A DNA stretch of 63,963 bases, filler included, from Acidimicrobiia bacterium (GTDB lineage: Bacteria; Actinomycetota; Acidimicrobiia; Spongiisociales; CAZKJJ01), in NCBI GenBank assembly GCA_046759765.1. It is 3 parts of 3 records of this genome, joined end to end, with 100 filler letters (N's around TTAATTAATTAA, not from the genome) between each part and the next. Parts side by side here need not be neighbours in the genome. Positions count along the whole stretch, not along the records: positions 29,165 to 57,325 come from JBHICV010000017.1; 2 more parts are not named here. The stretch is one strand, 5' to 3'. Each line of letters begins with the position of its first letter. Within the stretch, counting starts at the first letter, position 1. Below the pieces are notes generated by a model that did not search any database, had not been told where the DNA came from, and saw nothing but the letters and a program-made list of their open reading frames with translations. Position numbers and translations under genes: made by a program. This document shows positions 29,065 through 57,425 of the stretch, one piece after another.

Positions 29065-29164
29065 NNNNNNNNNNNNNNNNNNNNNNNNNNNNNNNNNNNN
29101 NNNNNNNNTTAATTAATTAANNNNNNNNNNNNNNNNNNNNNNNNNNNNNNNNNNNNNNNNNNNN
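29065..29164. other. Artificial contig-joining linker
   Basis: 100 nt of N with a central TTAATTAATTAA (stops in all six frames). Confidence 0.97.
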
Positions 29165-30722: not shown

Positions 30723-31706
30723 TCAACCGGCCAGTCGGCGCAGCTCGGGAAGTACTTCCTTGCCTACGAGTTCGATGGTCCGACCCGGGTCGGTGCTGGC
30801 GATTTGGACCGCGACATAGTCGCCCCCGATTTCGGTCACGAGGGGCGCATAGGCCTCGACGAGCTCTTTCACATCATGGACGATCGCGTACTTGGAGAGA
30901 ACCTCGTCACGCCCCAGTACGTCGGCCCTTTGCCTCAGCACCATAGGGTCAACGGCTTGGAGGCGGCCAGGCGCCCGCAGGCCACGCATCGAGCCGAGCG
31001 CTTTCCACGCTTCGTCGTCGTCAGCGGCAAGAACCGTCCACCTCGTGGCCATAACCGTGCCGGGGTTGCCCGTCTCCTCGGAGGCGGCATAGAACGGCGG
31101 GAGGATGCGGCCGGTGGTGTCTTCGGGATCCTTGACGCTCGTGATCAACCCCCCGGCATGAGCGCCCGCGAAGGCGGCGCTCATGGGTCCTCCGGCAGCC
31201 ATCCAAACAGGGACTTCTCGCACCGGTGGGCTGTAGAGCTTCGCCCTGTCGGTCGTGTAGTACTGGCCTTGGTAGTCCAGCTTTTCCCCGGCCAGGAGCC
31301 GGCGGATGATCGCCAGCGCTTCTCGCATCCGCTCCAGCCGCTCGTTGTAACCCGGGAAGGTGAAACCCAGCGGTCCTTCGTTGATGTTCTCGCCGGTTCC
31401 CGTCCCGAGAATGAACCGCCCTCCCGAGAGCCGGTCGATCGTGGCGGCCGCCTGCGCAACCACCCCCGGGTGGTAGTGGAACAGGGGACAGGTGACGCTG
31501 GTCGCCAGCTCGACGCGCTCGGTTCGGGCGGCCACCGAGCCCAACCATGACCATACGAACCCGGCAGCAGATTCATCATCAACCCAAGGGTGAAAGTGGT
31601 CCGAGCCGAGCACTAGGTCGAAGCCTGCCCGCTCGGCGCCTACGGCTTGAGACACGAGAACCTCAGGCTGATAGGACTCGTGGCTGCATAACCAGGCGAA
31701 CTTCAC
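30723..31706 (-). CDS. F420-dependent LLM-class oxidoreductase (G6PDH/Adf-like family)
   Basis: SHE, SDHFHPW, TSVTCP..YHP.VVAQA.AT, GTGENINE. Confidence 0.88.
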   Translation of the reverse strand: MKFAWLCSHESYQPEVLVSQAVGAERAGFDLVLGSDHFHPWVDDESAAGFVWSWLGSVAARTERVELATSVTCPLFHYHPGVVAQAAATIDRLSGGRFILGTGTGENINEGPLGFTFPGYNERLERMREALAIIRRLLAGEKLDYQGQYYTTDRAKLYSPPVREVPVWMAAGGPMSAAFAGAHAGGLITSVKDPEDTTGRILPPFYAASEETGNPGTVMATRWTVLAADDDEAWKALGSMRGLRAPGRLQAVDPMVLRQRADVLGRDEVLSKYAIVHDVKELVEAYAPLVTEIGGDYVAVQIASTDPGRTIELVGKEVLPELRRLAG

Positions 31707-31751: not shown

Positions 31752-32141
31752 TTAGAGGCCGAGAATCTGCTTCTTCTTTGCCTCGAACTCGTCCTCGGTG
31801 ATAACACCCTGATCTTTCAGCTGGGAAAGGCGTTCAAGCTCATCCAAATAGGAGCCGGTACCTGTCGATTCGGTTGGTGTGCCGCCTCCTTCTTCCTGGT
31901 CTTCGCTGGTCACCTGCTGCTTCTCGATGCCAAGCTGGTCCATCGCCTGCTCAAGCTCATGATCCTCGAGCTCCTCGGGCGGGACCCCGGTGTGCTGCTG
32001 GATTCGGTCTGCGTCACGCTTGCTCATCTTGTAAGCGCCGAACGCCACCAGTCCTCCGACCAGGATGATCCTTCTTCTTCTGCGCCGTCGCCGTCTTCGC
32101 CTCGTGCGTCTCATAGCTCGGCCGCGCCCGCGTCCTCGCAC
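31752..32141 (-). CDS. Small SHOCT-domain protein with an RG-repeat/poly-Arg N-terminus
   Basis: GTG start after a GGAGGAGG SD; MRGRGRGRAMRRT(R)11-IILVGGLVAFGAY; C-terminal SHOCT YLDELERLSQLKDQGVITEDEFEAKKKQILG. Confidence 0.85.
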   Translation of the reverse strand: MRGRGRGRAMRRTRRRRRRRRRRRIILVGGLVAFGAYKMSKRDADRIQQHTGVPPEELEDHELEQAMDQLGIEKQQVTSEDQEEGGGTPTESTGTGSYLDELERLSQLKDQGVITEDEFEAKKKQILGL

Positions 32142-32174
32142 TAATGCCTCCTCCCGGCTGGTCGTGGCTGGATC

Positions 32175-33143
32175 CTAACTAGAGCCGCCTGGAAGGAATC
32201 CAATCCTCTTCGAGGCACCCGAGGCGGTGGATTGGCGTTGCTCCGGCCGTTCGCTACCGGGCCGGCCAACACCCCACTCCCATCGGGAACCGTTCTCGCT
32301 GACTTCGAGCTCGACATGGACTTGATCGCCAGCCTCGACGCGAATCGGTTTAGCAAGCGGAAGGAAACCGTGGAACCAGCTCTTGCATCGGTTGGGCGGG
32401 ACGGTATCGATCCAGATACCAGCGCTCAGCTCGCCTTTGAACCAACACCCGAGGCCGTGAACCGTACCGTCGCGCTTGACAGCGAGGGATTCACGGGCGG
32501 CGAGTGTCGACGACGAGACCTCGATTAAGGACACCGTAAGCGAAATTGAAGGCTCCCCCAGAACATGTGCAGGGGAGAAGTCGGTCGACCACAAAGTATT
32601 GGCGGCCAGCTCCTGGGCCGGGGAGAGGTCAATTGTGTAGCGACCGTCCCCCCAGCGAGCGACCTCGGCATAATCGAACGAGCTCTCCACCAGACCTACC
32701 TCGAGGGTCAGCTTCTGCGGGATGATCCGGCCGCCCCCGCGCAGAAAGCGGTCTCTGGCGTCGGCTACGGTGCCCACGATGCCTTCGTCGAAGGCGGCGT
32801 TGCCAATCGTCTCGGTAACTATGACATCAACCGCCTCGGGGAGATCGATGTCGGTCGACCAGTCGTTGATGAACACCACCTTCTCCGAGAACCCGTTCTG
32901 CTCGCAGATCTGGCGGGCCAACTCCACCACCGGGCCCTGTTCCACCGCGTAGATCCGCTTCGCACCTGCCAGGGCAACAAAGTAGGCGAGGATCCCGGTC
33001 CCAGTCCCCAAGTCCAGCACTACGTCGCCTGGTCGCACCGTGGCCAGGATCGCCTTCAGGTAGCCGTCGGTTCGTTTCCGGTCGTCCAACATCTCGCGAT
33101 GAAAGGCGAGCGTCTGGGCTCCAGTGTCGTCATAGGCTGTCAC
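32175..33143 (-). CDS. Eukaryote-like protein arginine N-methyltransferase (PRMT fold)
   Basis: H.EML.D..RT..Y, motif I VLDLGTGTGIL, post-I YAVE, double-E loop VIVTETIGNAAFDE, motif III RFLRGGGRIIP, beta-barrel VHGLGCWF, THW-like KSW. Confidence 0.85.
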   Translation of the reverse strand: MTAYDDTGAQTLAFHREMLDDRKRTDGYLKAILATVRPGDVVLDLGTGTGILAYFVALAGAKRIYAVEQGPVVELARQICEQNGFSEKVVFINDWSTDIDLPEAVDVIVTETIGNAAFDEGIVGTVADARDRFLRGGGRIIPQKLTLEVGLVESSFDYAEVARWGDGRYTIDLSPAQELAANTLWSTDFSPAHVLGEPSISLTVSLIEVSSSTLAARESLAVKRDGTVHGLGCWFKGELSAGIWIDTVPPNRCKSWFHGFLPLAKPIRVEAGDQVHVELEVSENGSRWEWGVGRPGSERPEQRQSTASGASKRIGFLPGGSS

Positions 33144-33190: not shown

Positions 33191-34588
33191 ATGGACACTT
33201 ACGAGATGATCACGATCGGCTCGGGACCGGCCGGTGAGAAGGCTGCCACCCAAGCCGCTTACTTTGGCAAGCGCGTCGCCGTGATCGACCGCGACGCTCG
33301 TCCCGGCGGAGCACCGGTGAACAGCGGCGGCATCCCCACCAAGACGCTCCGGGAGACCGCCCTCTAGCTGACGGGTTTCCGTCGCGAGGTCTACGGCGTG
33401 GGCCTGGGCTTGAGTCCTGAGTTCACCTTGGAGCGACTCAAAGCAAGGGCGGCAGAAGTACAGGAGGCCATGGGGGCCACCGTGGCCGAGAACCTCGAAC
33501 GCCACAGGATCCAGTTTGTTCACGGGGAAGCCTCCTCCCTTGGGCCGCAGCGTGAGGTTCTCGTTACGACGGGCGACGGGTCGCGGAAGGAGCTGGCTGC
33601 CGACATCGTTCTGATCGCCACGGGATCGCGACCCTGGCACGCTCCGGGGGTGCCGTTCGACGACCCGGACGTATACGACTCGGAGACGATACTGGGACTC
33701 GATGGGATCCCTGAGAGCTTGGTCGTGATTGGAGCGGGGCCGGTGGGGTCCGAGTACGCATCAGTATTCACCGCCTTGGGCGTCGATGTCACTCTGATCG
33801 ACATGGCCGACCGACTCGTCCCTTTCCTCGACGCCGAGGTGGCTGATGTCTTGCGCCAGGTCTTCGAAGAAGGAGGCATGTCGGTGGTGCTTGGCACAGG
33901 CGGACAGGTCGATCGGGCGAATGGCACCCTCCGAGTGACGTTGGATAACGGGGATGTACTGGAACCGGAGAACGTCCTCTTCGCGGCTGGAAGGCTCGGC
34001 AACACAGAGAACCTCGGGCTCCAGGAAGCCGGGGTGGATCTGGATGACCGGGGCCGGATCATCGTCGACGCCCACTATCAGACTTCCGCAGCCGGGATCT
34101 ACGCAGCAGGCGATGTGATCGGACCGCCTGCGCTGGGCTCTGTCTCAGCCGAGCAGGGTCGGGTAGCGGCCTGTCACGCGTTCGGCATTCCATTCAAGGA
34201 GACCGTGGATCCGCTTCCACCGTACGGCGTTTACTCAATTCCGGAGGTAGGTATGGTCGGTCTGACCGAGGAAGCAGCAGCAGAGGCGGGACTGGACTAC
34301 GAGGTCGGCAAGGCCTGGTTCGCTGACAATGCCCGGAGCTGGATAGCCGCCACCAGACAGGGTCTCGTGAAGTTGGTGCTCTCTAGAGAGGATCGGCGTC
34401 TGATTGGTGCCCACGTTGTCGGTGAGGAAGCGTCGGAGCTCATCCACCAGGCGCAAGCGATCATTCATGCCGATGGCACGATCGACCAGTTCATCAACTC
34501 GACCTACAACATTCCCACCAGGTCAGAGGCCTTCAAGTACGCCGCCTACGACGCGCTTCAGCGGCTGAGCGGCAGCCGACTGCGCTAG
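33191..34588 (+). pseudogene. sthA: Soluble pyridine nucleotide transhydrogenase-like flavoprotein with an in-frame amber stop
   Basis: MDTYEMITIGSGPAGEKAATQAAYFGK...GIPTKTLRETAL*LTG; TAG at 33365-33367 is in frame with the 33398-34588 ORF (GAGPVG.EYAS, YAAGDVIGPPAL, YNIPT.SEAFKYAA). Confidence 0.8.
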
Positions 34589-35586
34589 GCGTGTAGCTCC
34601 ACCACGTCTCCGTCCGCGAGCACGTGGTCCCGTCCAACCTGTTGCCCGTCGAAGGTGGCAGGACCCCACACCCGCGCATACCGGAAGCCGGACGCAATGT
34701 CGCGATGGACAAGAGTCGCCAGGTCAACCACCGTGTCGCCGGCTCTGAGTGTGTAAGGTCGCCCGAGGTCGGGAGCGTGTCCCGGCATCTTCGTGTAGAC
34801 CCGGACAATCCGGAGATGCTCGAACAACCATGCCGCGAGTTCCTCCGTGCCTTCTCCGGTCTCAGCGGAAACGGCGAGAGTTGGGTAGTCGACCTCAGTT
34901 AGTTCCTCGAGCACGGAAAGCTCTCCGACCGGATCCGCCAGAGTGTCCGATTTGTTGGCGACGAGCAGGGCGGGTACGAGCTTCGTAAAGAGATCACCAT
35001 TTTTGGTTGCCGCGTCCCAGTCGCCGGTCAGTATTACCTTTCGTTCGCCCAAGAGACCGTGGATCTCTAGAACCTGGGCTACGCAGTCGGGGTTCCCGAG
35101 GTCGACAACCAGCAGGGCACCGTCGGTGGCATAGAGCGTGTTCCCGATCCAAGGCACCGGATGCGACTTGGCAAGGGGAGGGAGGTCGAGCAGCTGGAGA
35201 GCGATGTCCTCAAACGGCATCATGCCTGGCTGTGGGTATTGAGTCGTGAACGGGTAAGGACCGACGGGTGCGTGAGACCCGGTCAGTCGGTCGTGGAGCG
35301 TTGACTTGCCTGAATTGGGCGGGCCGAGCAGGGCAAGTTGTGCGGCGCCCTCAGGCCGGATCACCGTCACAGGGCCGCCACGTGTCCCAACCTTGGCGGG
35401 TGCCTCGAGGTCTTCTCTTAGCTCCTTGATCTTGGTCTTGATGTCAGCGCGGAGGTGTTCGGTTCCTTTGTGTTTGGGGATGGTGCGAAGCATTTCCCGT
35501 AGCGCCTCGAGTCGGTCTTTCGGGTCCCGAGCGCGGCGGTAGGCCAATTCGGCATCTTTGTACTCAGGTGTGAGATTGGCCGGCAT
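34585..35586 (-). CDS. DRG/Rbg1-like OBG-family GTPase with a TGS domain
   Basis: MPANLTPEY, IPKHKGTEHL, GPPNSGKST, YPFTT, DLPP, NKSD, IVRVYTK, VGRDHVLADGDVVELH. Confidence 0.88.
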   Translation of the reverse strand: MPANLTPEYKDAELAYRRARDPKDRLEALREMLRTIPKHKGTEHLRADIKTKIKELREDLEAPAKVGTRGGPVTVIRPEGAAQLALLGPPNSGKSTLHDRLTGSHAPVGPYPFTTQYPQPGMMPFEDIALQLLDLPPLAKSHPVPWIGNTLYATDGALLVVDLGNPDCVAQVLEIHGLLGERKVILTGDWDAATKNGDLFTKLVPALLVANKSDTLADPVGELSVLEELTEVDYPTLAVSAETGEGTEELAAWLFEHLRIVRVYTKMPGHAPDLGRPYTLRAGDTVVDLATLVHRDIASGFRYARVWGPATFDGQQVGRDHVLADGDVVELHA

Positions 35587-36990: not shown

Positions 36991-37353
36991 GTGCTCATTA
37001 CTTTCTGGAACGTCTTCTGGCTACTGATCTGGCTCTGGTTCCTGGTCGTCATCTTCTGGATCTTCATCCGGATTTTCATCGATATCTTCCGTCGGGAGGA
37101 TCTGTCGGGCTGGGCGAAAGCCGGGTGGGTGATTCTCATCGTGCTGCTGCCGTTTCTAGGCGCATTGATCTATATCATCGCCCGTCCCAAGATGACGGAG
37201 CAAGACAAACGGGAGATGGAGGCCTACGAGCAGGTTCAGAGGCGCGCGGCCGGCTATTCCTCAGCCGACGAGATCACCAAGCTAAAGAAGCTGCACTCCG
37301 AGGGAACGCTGTCCGACGAGGAATACGAGGCACTCAAAGCCCAAGCGATGTAG
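36991..37353 (+). CDS. Small membrane protein, PLDc N-terminal-like plus SHOCT
   Basis: DIFRREDLSGWAKAGW..LPFLG..IYIIAR; C-terminal ADEITKLKKLHSEG.LSDEEYEALKA. Confidence 0.85.
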   Translation: MLITFWNVFWLLIWLWFLVVIFWIFIRIFIDIFRREDLSGWAKAGWVILIVLLPFLGALIYIIARPKMTEQDKREMEAYEQVQRRAAGYSSADEITKLKKLHSEGTLSDEEYEALKAQAM

Positions 37354-57325: not shown

Positions 57326-57425
57326 NNNNNNNNNNNNNNNNNNNNNNNNNNNNNNNNNNNNNNNNNNNNTTAATTAATTAANNNNNNNNNNNNNNNNNNN
57401 NNNNNNNNNNNNNNNNNNNNNNNNN
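57326..57425. other. Artificial contig-joining linker
   Basis: 100 nt of N with a central TTAATTAATTAA. Confidence 0.97.

Follow-up and report, generated by a model that had tools for sequence, protein, structure and literature searches.

In a 63,963-nt stretch of Acidimicrobiia DNA (the window), a gene with the motifs of a protein arginine methyltransferase (PRMT) lies directly upstream of a small gene whose product begins with arginine repeats, which raises the question of whether the two encode an enzyme and its substrate. PRMT arginine methylation is a central regulatory modification in eukaryotes, and Gly/Arg-rich, poly-Arg sequence is the class of target that PRMTs prefer. Methyl-arginine has been detected in bacteria (10.1101/2023.06.29.546327), and SepIVA methylation is a bacterial case referred to in another paper; the literature searched yielded neither a bacterial enzyme–substrate pair of the PRMT family nor the phrase 'bacterial PRMT', and no listed paper has a bacterial PRMT as its subject, judged by title or abstract. 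The answer that we prefer, with a probability of roughly 0.5, is that a bacterial PRMT and a 129-aa protein make up a two-gene module, in which the enzyme would methylate the Arg tail of its partner and alter what this tail engages. The features on which this reading draws are as follows.

32175..33143, minus strand: PRMT-type protein arginine methyltransferase gene (ORF of 322 aa, short form, i.e. without a C-terminal PqqD-like extension)
32994..33020, minus strand: SAM-binding motif I, VLDLGTGTG, residues 42–50 (aligns to VLDVGCGTG of Hmt1)
32784..32813, minus strand: double-E loop E111-TIGNAAFD-E120, within TETIGNAAFDE at residues 110–120 (aligns to the SEW...YES loop of Hmt1 and PRMT2)
32376..32381, minus strand: S255-W256, the H-W position of the THW loop with Ser for His (aligns to THW of PRMT2)
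32147..32155, minus strand: Shine–Dalgarno-like GGGAGGAGG, from reading of the sequence (5-nt spacer, then GTG at 32139–32141)
31752..32141, minus strand: small conserved protein of 129 aa, with GAR/poly-Arg tail, short hydrophobic helix, acidic linker and SHOCT domain (ORF and Pfam)
32070..32141, minus strand: MRGRGRGRAMRRT plus R11, codons 1–24, candidate methyl-acceptor tail (17 Arg, net charge +17)
32025..32069, minus strand: IILVGGLVAFGAYKM, codons 25–39, short hydrophobic glycine-containing helix (Kyte–Doolittle 15-residue maximum 1.79)
31761..31844, minus strand: SHOCT domain, residues 100–127 (Pfam E 1e-10; modelled docking surface for the methyltransferase)
30723..31706, minus strand: F420-dependent LLM-class oxidoreductase (TIGR03557 228 bits against a cut-off of 210.4; Pfam Bac_luciferase E 2.3e-52)

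The methyltransferase gene and its family

The enzyme ORF starts at a GTG that is the first start codon past the in-frame stop, and ends with TAG at 32175–32177. An earlier note on this DNA had read an ordered PRMT signature here, leaving the strand unstated; every motif that it listed is present, on the minus strand, beginning with H15-R-E-M-L-D-D-R-K-R-T and continuing through motif I, YAVE (65–68), the double-E loop, LRGGGRIIP (134–142) and KSW (254–256). Across 56 of 56 PRMT family members, V42, G46, G48 and G50 of motif I are invariant, as are the double-E glutamates E111 and E120, nine positions apart, and both S255 and W256, whilst the post-I acidic residue, E68 in YAVE, aligns to Hmt1 and PRMT2. 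As PRMT5 likewise carries Ser-Trp at the H-W position of the THW loop, Ser255 may be a tolerated variant.

Structure prediction and profile comparison, proposed by the earlier note for distinguishing a PRMT from a PrmA-type enzyme, both spoke for the former. The AF2 model (pLDDT 93.1, pTM 0.90) contains a PRMT barrel and arm, with strands running from residue 134 to 305 and inserted helices at 155–165 and 174–181, and Foldseek alignments to solved PRMTs span 311–341 columns, with TM scores of 0.75–0.81 to PRMT6, PRMT2, CARM1, PRMT1 and Hmt1. In a phmmer search of the PDB the best match was PRMT2 (E 1.2e-31, enzyme residues 11–283), with PRMT2, Hmt1 and PRMT6 falling between E 1e-31 and 1e-28; 75 distinct PDB sequences matched at E ≤ 0.01, and the best 60 of these 75 are all named as arginine methyltransferases or PRMT-type proteins. 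Pfam likewise assigned PRMT5_C (38.7 bits, cut-off 30.3) and PRMT_C (34.3 bits, cut-off 27). Sequence and model together point to a genuine bacterial PRMT, that is, a class I SAM methyltransferase with double-E loop, beta-barrel and helical arm, for which arginine methylation would be the predicted activity. The description 'eukaryote-like' has to be qualified: identity to solved eukaryotic PRMTs is only 22–27 %, and the family is a bacterial one that counts at least 488 proteins, its full-length relatives extending across many bacterial phyla and into Asgard archaea. The enzyme is a member of a large bacterial family and not a recent eukaryotic import.

Amongst known methyltransferases the enzyme is most like the type I PRMTs. 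With the eukaryotic members of that type (PRMT1/Hmt1, PRMT6, PRMT2 and CARM1) it shares the Rossmann SAM domain, beta-barrel and helical arm, together with motif I, the post-I acid, the equally spaced double-E loop, motif III and the THW Trp; furthermore, its Met18 sits in the H-x-x-M-L motif, at a position that is Met in type I PRMTs and Phe in PRMT5. It differs from them in being bacterial, in a very short N-terminus where the YFxxY helix is not evident, in the replacement of the THW His by Ser, and in having its gene adjoin that of a candidate dedicated partner. PrmA has in common with it the class I SAM-binding core (Pfam PrmA on enzyme residues 25–112, E 2.5e-9), but that match spans just profile positions 148–234 of 296, and the window enzyme possesses a PRMT barrel instead of the L11-binding N-terminal domain. 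PrmA was accordingly rejected as an identity for this protein, the equivalog profile TIGR00406 lying far under its cut-off (34.1 bits against 183.15, profile positions 155–233 of 288 only). The automatic naming of relatives of the enzyme as PrmA or L11 methyltransferase is a mis-annotation. A role in anti-phage defence was also considered and set aside, as PADLOC returned only a methyltransferase-core match to mad2 (residues 29–141, E 4e-14) and none for the small protein.

The small partner protein and its locus

The enzyme gene and the small ORF are separated by an intergenic gap of 33 nt (32142–32174). The Shine–Dalgarno sequence, RG-repeat with R11, hydrophobic stretch and SHOCT domain that had been described 33 nt downstream were all found, on the same (minus) strand. 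In the 129-aa protein, RGRGRGR makes up residues 2–8 and then come 11 consecutive Arg; at the other end, the SHOCT match covers profile positions 1–28 of 28 (41.4 bits against a cut-off of 27). Within the hydrophobic helix L27, G29, G30 and G35 are invariant in the family alignment, and by Kyte–Doolittle hydropathy a canonical transmembrane helix is unsupported in this protein, the 19-residue maximum being only 0.75. The small ORF shows the GC3-over-GC2 bias of the real genes in the window, which together with its in-frame Pfam domain marks it as more than a chance reading frame.

One worry raised at the outset was that translation might start at the second Met, so that RGRGRGR would not be made. 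The family alignment answers this in favour of the upstream GTG: Met10 of the window protein is not conserved, many relatives having Val there, and R15, R18, R19 and R21–24 of the tail do not vary across the 22 members aligned. Judged from this conservation, the RG/poly-Arg N-terminus is very probably translated. The public record of the protein begins at residue 32, without the Arg tail; a mis-called start codon has thus concealed the partner's most informative 31 residues.

The protein's family numbers about 1000, with 958 of the 987 candidates scored being relatives at E ≤ 0.01, and mean column identity in the family alignment is 66 %. Of 206 relatives examined, 202 were scorable, meaning that their N-terminal segment ran to 12 aa or more. 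All 202 contain poly-Arg (at least 6 Arg in 8 residues) and keep the order of poly-Arg, short hydrophobic helix, acidic linker and SHOCT, and 161 have two or more RG/GR dipeptides before the hydrophobic helix. In the placement of a C-terminal, 28-residue, two-helix SHOCT after a hydrophobic N-terminal part the protein is like other SHOCT-domain proteins (PF09851), from which its own conserved subfamily is set apart by the poly-Arg/GAR tail and by a conserved KMSKRDADRIEEHTG...AMDELGIEKQ segment. The founding paper on SHOCT (PMC3581485) proposes oligomerisation or nucleic-acid binding for the domain, and reports experiments that gave no support to oligomerisation. Amongst the best 150 of 919 representative matches to the small protein, none was a fusion to a methyltransferase; the only long proteins in that set, of 821 and 558 aa, match by way of SHOCT repeats. 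Searched with the small protein, the ESM Atlas gave unnamed SHOCT clusters only, most commonly in Chloroflexota, and a plasmid collection gave only the SHOCT domains of three Bacillus plasmids. The same collection searched with the enzyme returned seven distant PRMT-like regions, which are uninformative for the gene pair.

The 33-nt gap and the strong ribosome-binding site suggest that the enzyme and small-protein genes are co-transcribed, and from the gene arrangement we regard this as likely. The F420-dependent oxidoreductase gene begins 45 nt downstream of the small ORF on the same strand, just as had been noted earlier, and is a possible further member of the operon. A weak scan of the locus found no terminator-like site between the genes, the sole such site falling inside the oxidoreductase gene. 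Promoter scanning of the locus gave zero promoter-like sites, Rfam no matches, and repeats there were short and at chance level only.

Apparent recurrence of the gene pair and the modelled complex

For pairing, 120 listed PRMT homologues (of at least 488) were compared with 206 small-protein homologues (of about 975). In a first set of 120 PRMT and 119 small-protein homologues, we identified four pairs that share a source and lie on contigs of identical nucleotide size, compared with a mean of 0.8 when sizes were offset by ±1 to 100 nt (1 of 200 offsets reaches four). A replicate with 87 new small-protein homologues added three further pairs against a mean of 0.32 (again, 1 of 200 offsets reaches three), bringing the matched pairs to seven where about 1.1 would be expected by chance. 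One of the replicate pairs is on a contig of 959,310 nt, and on a contig of 1825 nt the enzyme and small-protein genes leave 262 nt. Moreover, the identity matrices of eight enzyme–partner pairs are correlated, with a Mantel r of 0.82 that was reached by 24 of 40,320 permutations. Short-form enzymes like that of the window occur in two of the seven pairs (P0047 and P0100), and long-form enzymes in the other five. Contigs of equal size but different source were set aside as chance matches (P0002/P0156, 1426 nt; P0117/P0152, 1102 nt; P0074/P0273, 1360 nt), and the latter two sizes are unable to hold both genes. Equal contig size, equal source and correlated divergence thus lend indirect support to co-location, and it seems that the enzyme and the 129-aa protein form a two-gene module present in other bacteria as well.

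In a survey of gene neighbourhoods for Arg- or RG-rich neighbours, which the earlier note had suggested, a contig scan yielded, among the matches listed, two close relatives along with 35 distant PRMT-like loci, either full-length or partial, and the small protein was found at none of them. The two close ones (L001 and L002), the closest genome loci among the matches listed, are from Microthrixaceae and encode enzymes with 44–46 % identity to that of the window; a small-protein homologue is absent from their flanks of up to 5 kb, where the neighbours are unrelated. An Arg-rich neighbour was found at none of the 32 loci with a called PRMT-like gene, namely these two and 30 distant ones, in gene calls from a crude caller that left 5 of the 37 loci uncalled. 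Amongst contigs of at least 5 kb, 1 of 27 with the small protein and 1 of 33 with the PRMT matched a listed partner contig (among the matches listed). Given that large-contig matches are few and that only listed homologues entered the comparison, the pairing looks frequent rather than universal.

These loci bear upon an alternative that we consider unlikely, in which the adjacency is meaningless and a general or otherwise targeted PRMT, acting for example on ribosomal or cell-division proteins, happens to stand beside a common SHOCT gene. Such a reading would suit the absence of the small-protein gene beside the closest relatives listed, as well as the character of the window, which is core chromosome with housekeeping genes (ribosomal proteins, rpoA, groES/EL, tsaD and tRNA synthetases), and many bacterial proteins are reported to be arginine-methylated (10.1101/2023.06.29.546327). 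It is opposed by the excess of same-source, equal-size contig matches and the co-divergence of the partners, by the short gap and strong ribosome-binding site that suggest co-transcription, and by a model of the complex that passed with its three controls at 0.00.

In that model the enzyme and the small protein together scored 0.63, which supports binding; 116 of 157 solved complexes attain the mark used, against 2 of 215 mismatched pairs, although with alignments of our own these counts apply only approximately. Agreement between the runs is at least 1 % of contacts and partner pLDDT is at least 65, with one of the three runs scoring 0.00. The modelled interface joins partner residues 98–128, which is to say SHOCT, to enzyme residues 26–38, 57–60 and 84; it lies off the active site, and the Arg tail is not in the active site. 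In solved dimers of eukaryotic PRMTs, this enzyme surface receives the dimerisation arm of the other protomer, and as only one enzyme copy was present in the model, a helical hairpin could be drawn to the arm-binding surface artefactually. With that reservation, the model supports binding of the enzyme to the small protein through the SHOCT domain.

Contact through SHOCT rather than through the Arg tail would also fit a cooperation in which the small protein accepts no methyl groups and acts instead as an adaptor, membrane tether or regulator, with the substrates elsewhere: the enzyme could be localised by way of the hydrophobic helix and cationic tail, or its dimerisation controlled by SHOCT on the arm-binding surface. 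Recurrence of the pair is compatible with any functional partnership, and SHOCT-like domains have been put forward as anchors of disparate activities at the inner face of the membrane (PMC11237479). Nevertheless, we rate this arrangement as distinctly improbable, as it leaves the conserved Gly/Arg-rich, poly-Arg tail of all scorable members unexplained, and docking distant from the active site is also expected of a domain that recruits a substrate.

Recruitment of the latter kind has precedents, in that PRMT3 with ribosomal protein S2, and PRMT5 with its substrate adaptors, bring in an RG-rich tail through docking off the active site, as the SHOCT-mediated model suggests here. Those systems differ in relying on a zinc-finger domain or on separate adaptors, whereas the candidate docker at our locus is the substrate's own SHOCT. 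Under the preferred reading, of an enzyme that methylates its partner, the enzyme would first bind the small protein with the contact at the SHOCT helical hairpin, after which methyl groups from SAM would be transferred to guanidino nitrogens of the Gly/Arg-rich, poly-Arg N-terminal tail. Methylation would then alter how the +17 tail engages anionic partners, for which membrane lipids, nucleic acid and the small protein's own acidic linker are candidates. We infer in this way both that the small protein is a substrate of the enzyme and that its methylation has a consequence.

If the pair is real, it offers a directly testable two-gene system with a candidate substrate built in, as well as a first function for the widespread and unexplained SHOCT, and it would correct the names of hundreds of 'L11 methyltransferase' genes. 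A bolder and more doubtful extension is that this is the first recognisable dedicated bacterial arginine-methylation module, widespread in Chloroflexota, Acidimicrobiia and neighbouring phyla, in which the substrate itself would recruit the PRMT through SHOCT, the domain thereby gaining a first concrete function as an enzyme-docking hairpin. The enzyme would then methylate the poly-Arg/GAR tail multiply, and so switch whether the tail binds membrane, nucleic acid or the acidic linker of the small protein. Were that true, GAR-tail methylation with substrate docking would predate or parallel the eukaryotic system.

Long-form relatives and their PqqD-like extension

In long-form homologues of the enzyme the C-terminal end forms a three-helix domain (model pLDDT 93–97). 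Of ten such C-terminal extensions, seven match the NCBIfam model of the peptide chaperone PqqD, the best at E 2.2e-4 and all below the curated cut-offs; in PDB profile searches, too, the top hits include PqqD (E 0.4–0.6). Pfam called an extension domain in none of six whole long-form homologues; given four isolated extensions, it returned PqqD for two (E 0.12–0.16) and HTH_47 for one (E 0.13). As these Pfam matches are weak and sub-cut-off, the PqqD likeness is a lead, not a finding. The long-form relatives thus resemble PqqD/RRE-dependent peptide-modifying enzymes in a three-helix end that weakly matches PqqD, but the strands that precede the PqqD helices are not seen in the domain model, and the window enzyme ends at residue 322 with no such domain. 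A RiPP-type system was rejected for the window, where the enzyme has no RRE/PqqD and the neighbours are an oxidoreductase and a conserved 129-aa protein.

It is accordingly very unlikely that enzymes of this family serve natural-product pathways by modifying short peptides or small guanidino compounds instead of a cellular protein, with the window copy a remnant or variant of such a tailoring enzyme: the PqqD-like extension, the locus L012 (two PRMT-like genes with an HPr-kinase-like gene, a 2OG oxygenase, an ABC exporter and an NTP_transf_5 gene) and a PRMT-like stretch that is annotated as NRPS on a plasmid of Nostoc would agree with it, but every PqqD match is under curated cut-offs, the window enzyme is without the domain and has no precursor-like short ORF or biosynthetic genes beside it, and five of the seven pairs join a long-form enzyme with a 130-aa SHOCT protein. 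That last observation instead indicates that the PqqD-like domain may serve the SHOCT protein. Were there a dedicated methylation module, recruitment in the long-form relatives might fall to a PqqD-like peptide-binding domain, and the docker there would perhaps be this domain, unlike the zinc finger or separate adaptors of the PRMT3 and PRMT5 systems.

The methyltransferase and its relatives

The earlier note had placed a eukaryote-like protein arginine methyltransferase (PRMT) gene directly upstream of an RG-repeat/poly-Arg ORF with a SHOCT domain, and had read the two as an enzyme–substrate pair. Every motif that it quoted was found in the two translations; the observation holds, and its interpretation is supported in part. 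The features concerned are as follows.

32175–33143, minus strand: enzyme ORF, 322 aa, started by a GTG that is the earliest start codon past an in-frame stop
32147–32155, minus strand: GGGAGGAGG, 5 nt ahead of the small-protein GTG
31752–32141, minus strand: small-protein ORF, 129 aa, GTG start, 33 nt past the enzyme ORF
30723–31706, minus strand: third ORF, F420-dependent oxidoreductase, 327 aa, 45 nt beyond the small-protein ORF; a possible member of the same unit

Against Pfam, the enzyme scored above the cut-offs of PRMT5_C (38.7 bits, cut-off 30.3) and PRMT_C (34.3 bits, cut-off 27), the other matches being generic methyltransferase models and, over the core only, PrmA. The automatic annotation of relatives as PrmA or 'L11 methyltransferase' is wrong, as the NCBIfam PrmA equivalog, with a cut-off of 183 bits, scored only 34. 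Seventy-five distinct PDB chains matched at E ≤ 0.01, and all of the best 60 were arginine methyltransferases or PRMT-type proteins, led by PRMT2 (1.2e-31, residues 11–283), Hmt1 (6.8e-30) and PRMT6 (4.3e-28). In these alignments VLDLGTGTG corresponds to motif I, E68 to the post-I acid and LRGGGRIIP to motif III, whilst E111 and E120 fall on the double-E loop with identical spacing and S255-W256 on the H-W of the THW loop; all 56 sequences of a family alignment keep E111, E120, S255 and W256 unchanged. The AlphaFold2 model built from that alignment (mean pLDDT 93.1, pTM 0.90) contains a Rossmann domain, the PRMT barrel and an inserted helix pair (155–181), and Foldseek matched it to PRMT6, PRMT2, CARM1, PRMT1 and Hmt1 (TM 0.75–0.81, E about 1e-27). 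On the strength of these sequence and model results, the enzyme is a full PRMT, and adds a new bacterial protein to a known fold. Its departures are a very short N-terminus and a Ser in place of the THW His; Met18 of its H-x-x-M-L motif presumably hints at type I chemistry.

The family comprises at least 488 proteins at E ≤ 0.001 (8000 candidates scored). Among the matches listed, the best relatives are metagenomic, with 40–54 % identity besides one 99 % copy, and the few named ones belong to Chloroflexota and Acidimicrobiia. A genome scan added Microthrixaceae relatives (44–46 % identity) and full-length PRMT-like genes of 25–35 % identity in Cyanobacteria, Myxococcota, Verrucomicrobiota, Acidobacteriota, Proteobacteria and Asgard archaea; 'eukaryote-like' therefore holds for the fold and not for ancestry. 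The Asgard matches, at 29 % identity, lie in Thorarchaeota and Hermodarchaeota MAGs (L034:1874–2725, a 283-aa ORF, and L036:5001–5750, with no called gene). In a Planctomycetaceae MAG (L033:1070–2121) the gene appears as two overlapping ORFs of 160 and 190 aa, which suggests a frameshift or assembly error. On plasmid NZ_CP046706.1 of Nostoc sp. ATCC 53789, a PRMT-like stretch (205357–206142; 27 % identity across 81 % of the query) is covered by a non-ribosomal peptide synthetase annotation. A Pyrinomonadaceae MAG (L012:1728–9181) carries two PRMT-like genes (408 and 382 aa) in a co-oriented cluster with HPr-kinase-like, 2OG-Fe(II) oxygenase, ABC exporter/transporter and NTP_transf_5 genes, which looks like a peptide natural-product cluster.

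Approximately two-thirds of the close relatives are 375–420 aa long owing to a C-terminal extension (long-form enzymes) that the window enzyme, a short-form member, lacks. Modelling of one long-form protein gave the extension as a three-helix domain with high confidence. Pfam called it in none of six whole long-form proteins, whilst isolated extensions gave PqqD at E 0.12–0.16 in two of four cases. NCBIfam PqqD models matched seven of ten C-terminal segments of ∼70 aa (P0003, P0005, P0008, P0021, P0026, P0029, P0032, P0036, P0038 and P0112; best E 2.2e-4), and a PDB profile search placed PqqD chains within the top four (E 0.4–0.6). The extension of most close relatives thus weakly but repeatedly matches PqqD, a likeness to that peptide-binding chaperone domain (peptide chaperone/RRE) that is consistent but sub-threshold.

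The Arg-rich SHOCT protein

The C-terminus of the small protein forms a SHOCT domain (E 1e-10). It has 958 relatives at E ≤ 0.01, and in a 50 %-identity library 919 representatives matched at E ≤ 0.001, 115 of them with E ≤ 1e-10. By alignment the family is strikingly conserved in its order: an R/G-rich start, poly-Arg, (I/L)LLVGGLVAFGAYKMSKRDADRIEEHTG, an acidic segment containing AMDELGIEKQ, an acidic, variable linker and SHOCT. The hydrophobic motif is present in 204 of 206 relatives, 202 of which have at least 12 residues ahead of it; there, all 202 contain at least six Arg within eight residues and 161 at least two RG/GR dipeptides. In the window protein, residues 1–24 carry a charge of +17 and residues 40–129 of −14, and the hydrophobic stretch is short (Kyte–Doolittle maximum 1.79 over 15 residues, 0.75 over 19). 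The tail's 17 Arg codons (32070–32141, minus strand) use AGA/AGG seven times (41 %, vs 16 % in 15 other window genes); they are mixed, and there is therefore no nucleotide repeat.

Public records of the protein (P0121, 98 aa; an ESM Atlas entry) begin at Val32 (region 32046–32141, minus strand). This is very probably a start-codon mis-call, because the invariant poly-Arg tract and half of the hydrophobic helix would be lost. Translation from the second Met, which would also remove the RG repeat, is not favoured either: Met10 is unconserved in the family alignment, and the poly-Arg tract is invariant.

The 2013 paper defining SHOCT assigned no function and proposed oligomerisation and nucleic-acid binding, the former without support from experiments (PMC3581485). 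In a later comparative study, SHOCT-like domains are predicted to tether activities to the membrane inner face (PMC11237479).

Apparent recurrence of the gene pair

Direct neighbourhood evidence on the pairing is thin and negative: no small-protein homologue occurred in 80 fetched loci, no Arg-rich neighbour in 32 loci with a called PRMT-like gene, and the two closest relatives have unrelated neighbours (glyoxalase, PNPOx-like, DUF2200 and RCC1-repeat proteins). We also compared the enzyme and small-protein match lists for entries of the same source and identical contig size. Among the matches listed, four pairs agreed exactly, against a mean of 0.8 at neighbouring offsets, of which one in 200 was as high. 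A replicate with relatives of a second small-protein family member (87 new entries) gave three more (0.32 expected), one on a 959,310-nt contig. On five matched contigs, 262 to 1282 nt are left over beside both genes. For eight enzymes and the eight small proteins presumed to be their partners, the pairwise identity matrices were correlated, as predicted by shared genomes (Mantel r 0.82, reached in 24 of 40,320 permutations), and the three replicate enzymes, chosen solely via contig size, were among those nearest to the enzyme presumed to partner the query. Five matched pairs involve long-form and two short-form enzymes. From source, contig size and co-divergence, we conclude that the pair appears to recur with both enzyme forms. 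It is not universal: among contigs of ≥ 5 kb, a listed counterpart was matched to 1 of 27 partner contigs and 1 of 33 enzyme contigs, counts covering roughly a quarter of the enzyme family and a fifth of the small-protein family. That the enzyme is a general methyltransferase, its adjacency to the small protein being without meaning, seems to us unlikely in view of this recurrence.

Predicted complex, proposed function and surrounding genes

A complex of one enzyme copy and the small protein, modelled with their own family alignments and three controls, returned the verdict 'supports binding' (score 0.63, best control 0.00; single runs 0.63, 0.00 and 0.65). The passing mark is attained by 116 of 157 solved complexes and by 2 of 215 mismatched pairs, counts that are only roughly valid with own alignments. 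Runs shared at least 1 % of contacts, with a partner pLDDT of at least 65. Confident contacts join SHOCT residues 98–128 to enzyme residues 26–38, 57–60 and 84, three helices of the SAM-binding domain away from the active site. The model thus supports binding; we know of no solved SHOCT–PRMT complex, and the pass is therefore unlikely to be memory. The site is, we take it, the surface that receives the second protomer's dimerisation arm in solved PRMT dimers, and because a single enzyme copy was modelled, a helical hairpin may have been drawn to it.

The best-supported reading, to which we give a probability of about one half, is a dedicated enzyme–substrate module. The small protein would dock on the enzyme (in the model, by way of SHOCT), and methylation of its flexible GAR/poly-Arg tail would follow, altering how the +17 tail meets anionic partners. 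The same docking would suit a small protein that tethers or regulates the enzyme while itself unmethylated, which we hold to be rather improbable. Least probable is the tailoring of peptides or small molecules, which the PqqD-like extensions of relatives and the gene set of the Pyrinomonadaceae locus suggest. Methyl-arginine is described as common but understudied in bacteria in one report (10.1101/2023.06.29.546327). The non-subscription literature searched yielded neither a paper on a bacterial PRMT nor one on a PRMT–PqqD fusion. What is new about the enzyme is its repeated pairing with a SHOCT protein bearing poly-Arg, together with the fusion of relatives to a PqqD-like domain.

The window belongs to the core chromosome, with genes for ribosomal proteins, rpoA, groES/EL, tsaD and tRNA synthetases. 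It comprises three contigs, the middle piece being 28,161 nt, which equals the listed contig size of P0121; the N runs at 29065–29164 and 57326–57425 each consist of two 44-N runs (29065–29108 and 29121–29164; 57326–57369 and 57382–57425). At 33191–34588 (plus strand), a pyridine-nucleotide-disulphide oxidoreductase gene (Pyr_redox_2, Pyr_redox_dim) is broken by a single in-frame TAG (33365–33367), past which the frame is unchanged (...LRETAL*LTGFRREVYG...). The TAG may have arisen by nonsense mutation or sequencing error, or the codon may be recoded. The usual pair of redox cysteines is absent from the N-terminal piece of the gene product (GGAPVNSGGIPTK). Upstream, past this divergent gene, lies a 333-aa GTPase that carries an MMR_HSR1 and a C-terminal TGS domain (34585–35586, minus strand). 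Furthermore, a second SHOCT protein of 120 aa (36991–37353, plus strand), unrelated to the small protein and without an Arg-rich tail, has a strongly hydrophobic, Trp/Phe-rich N-terminal half.
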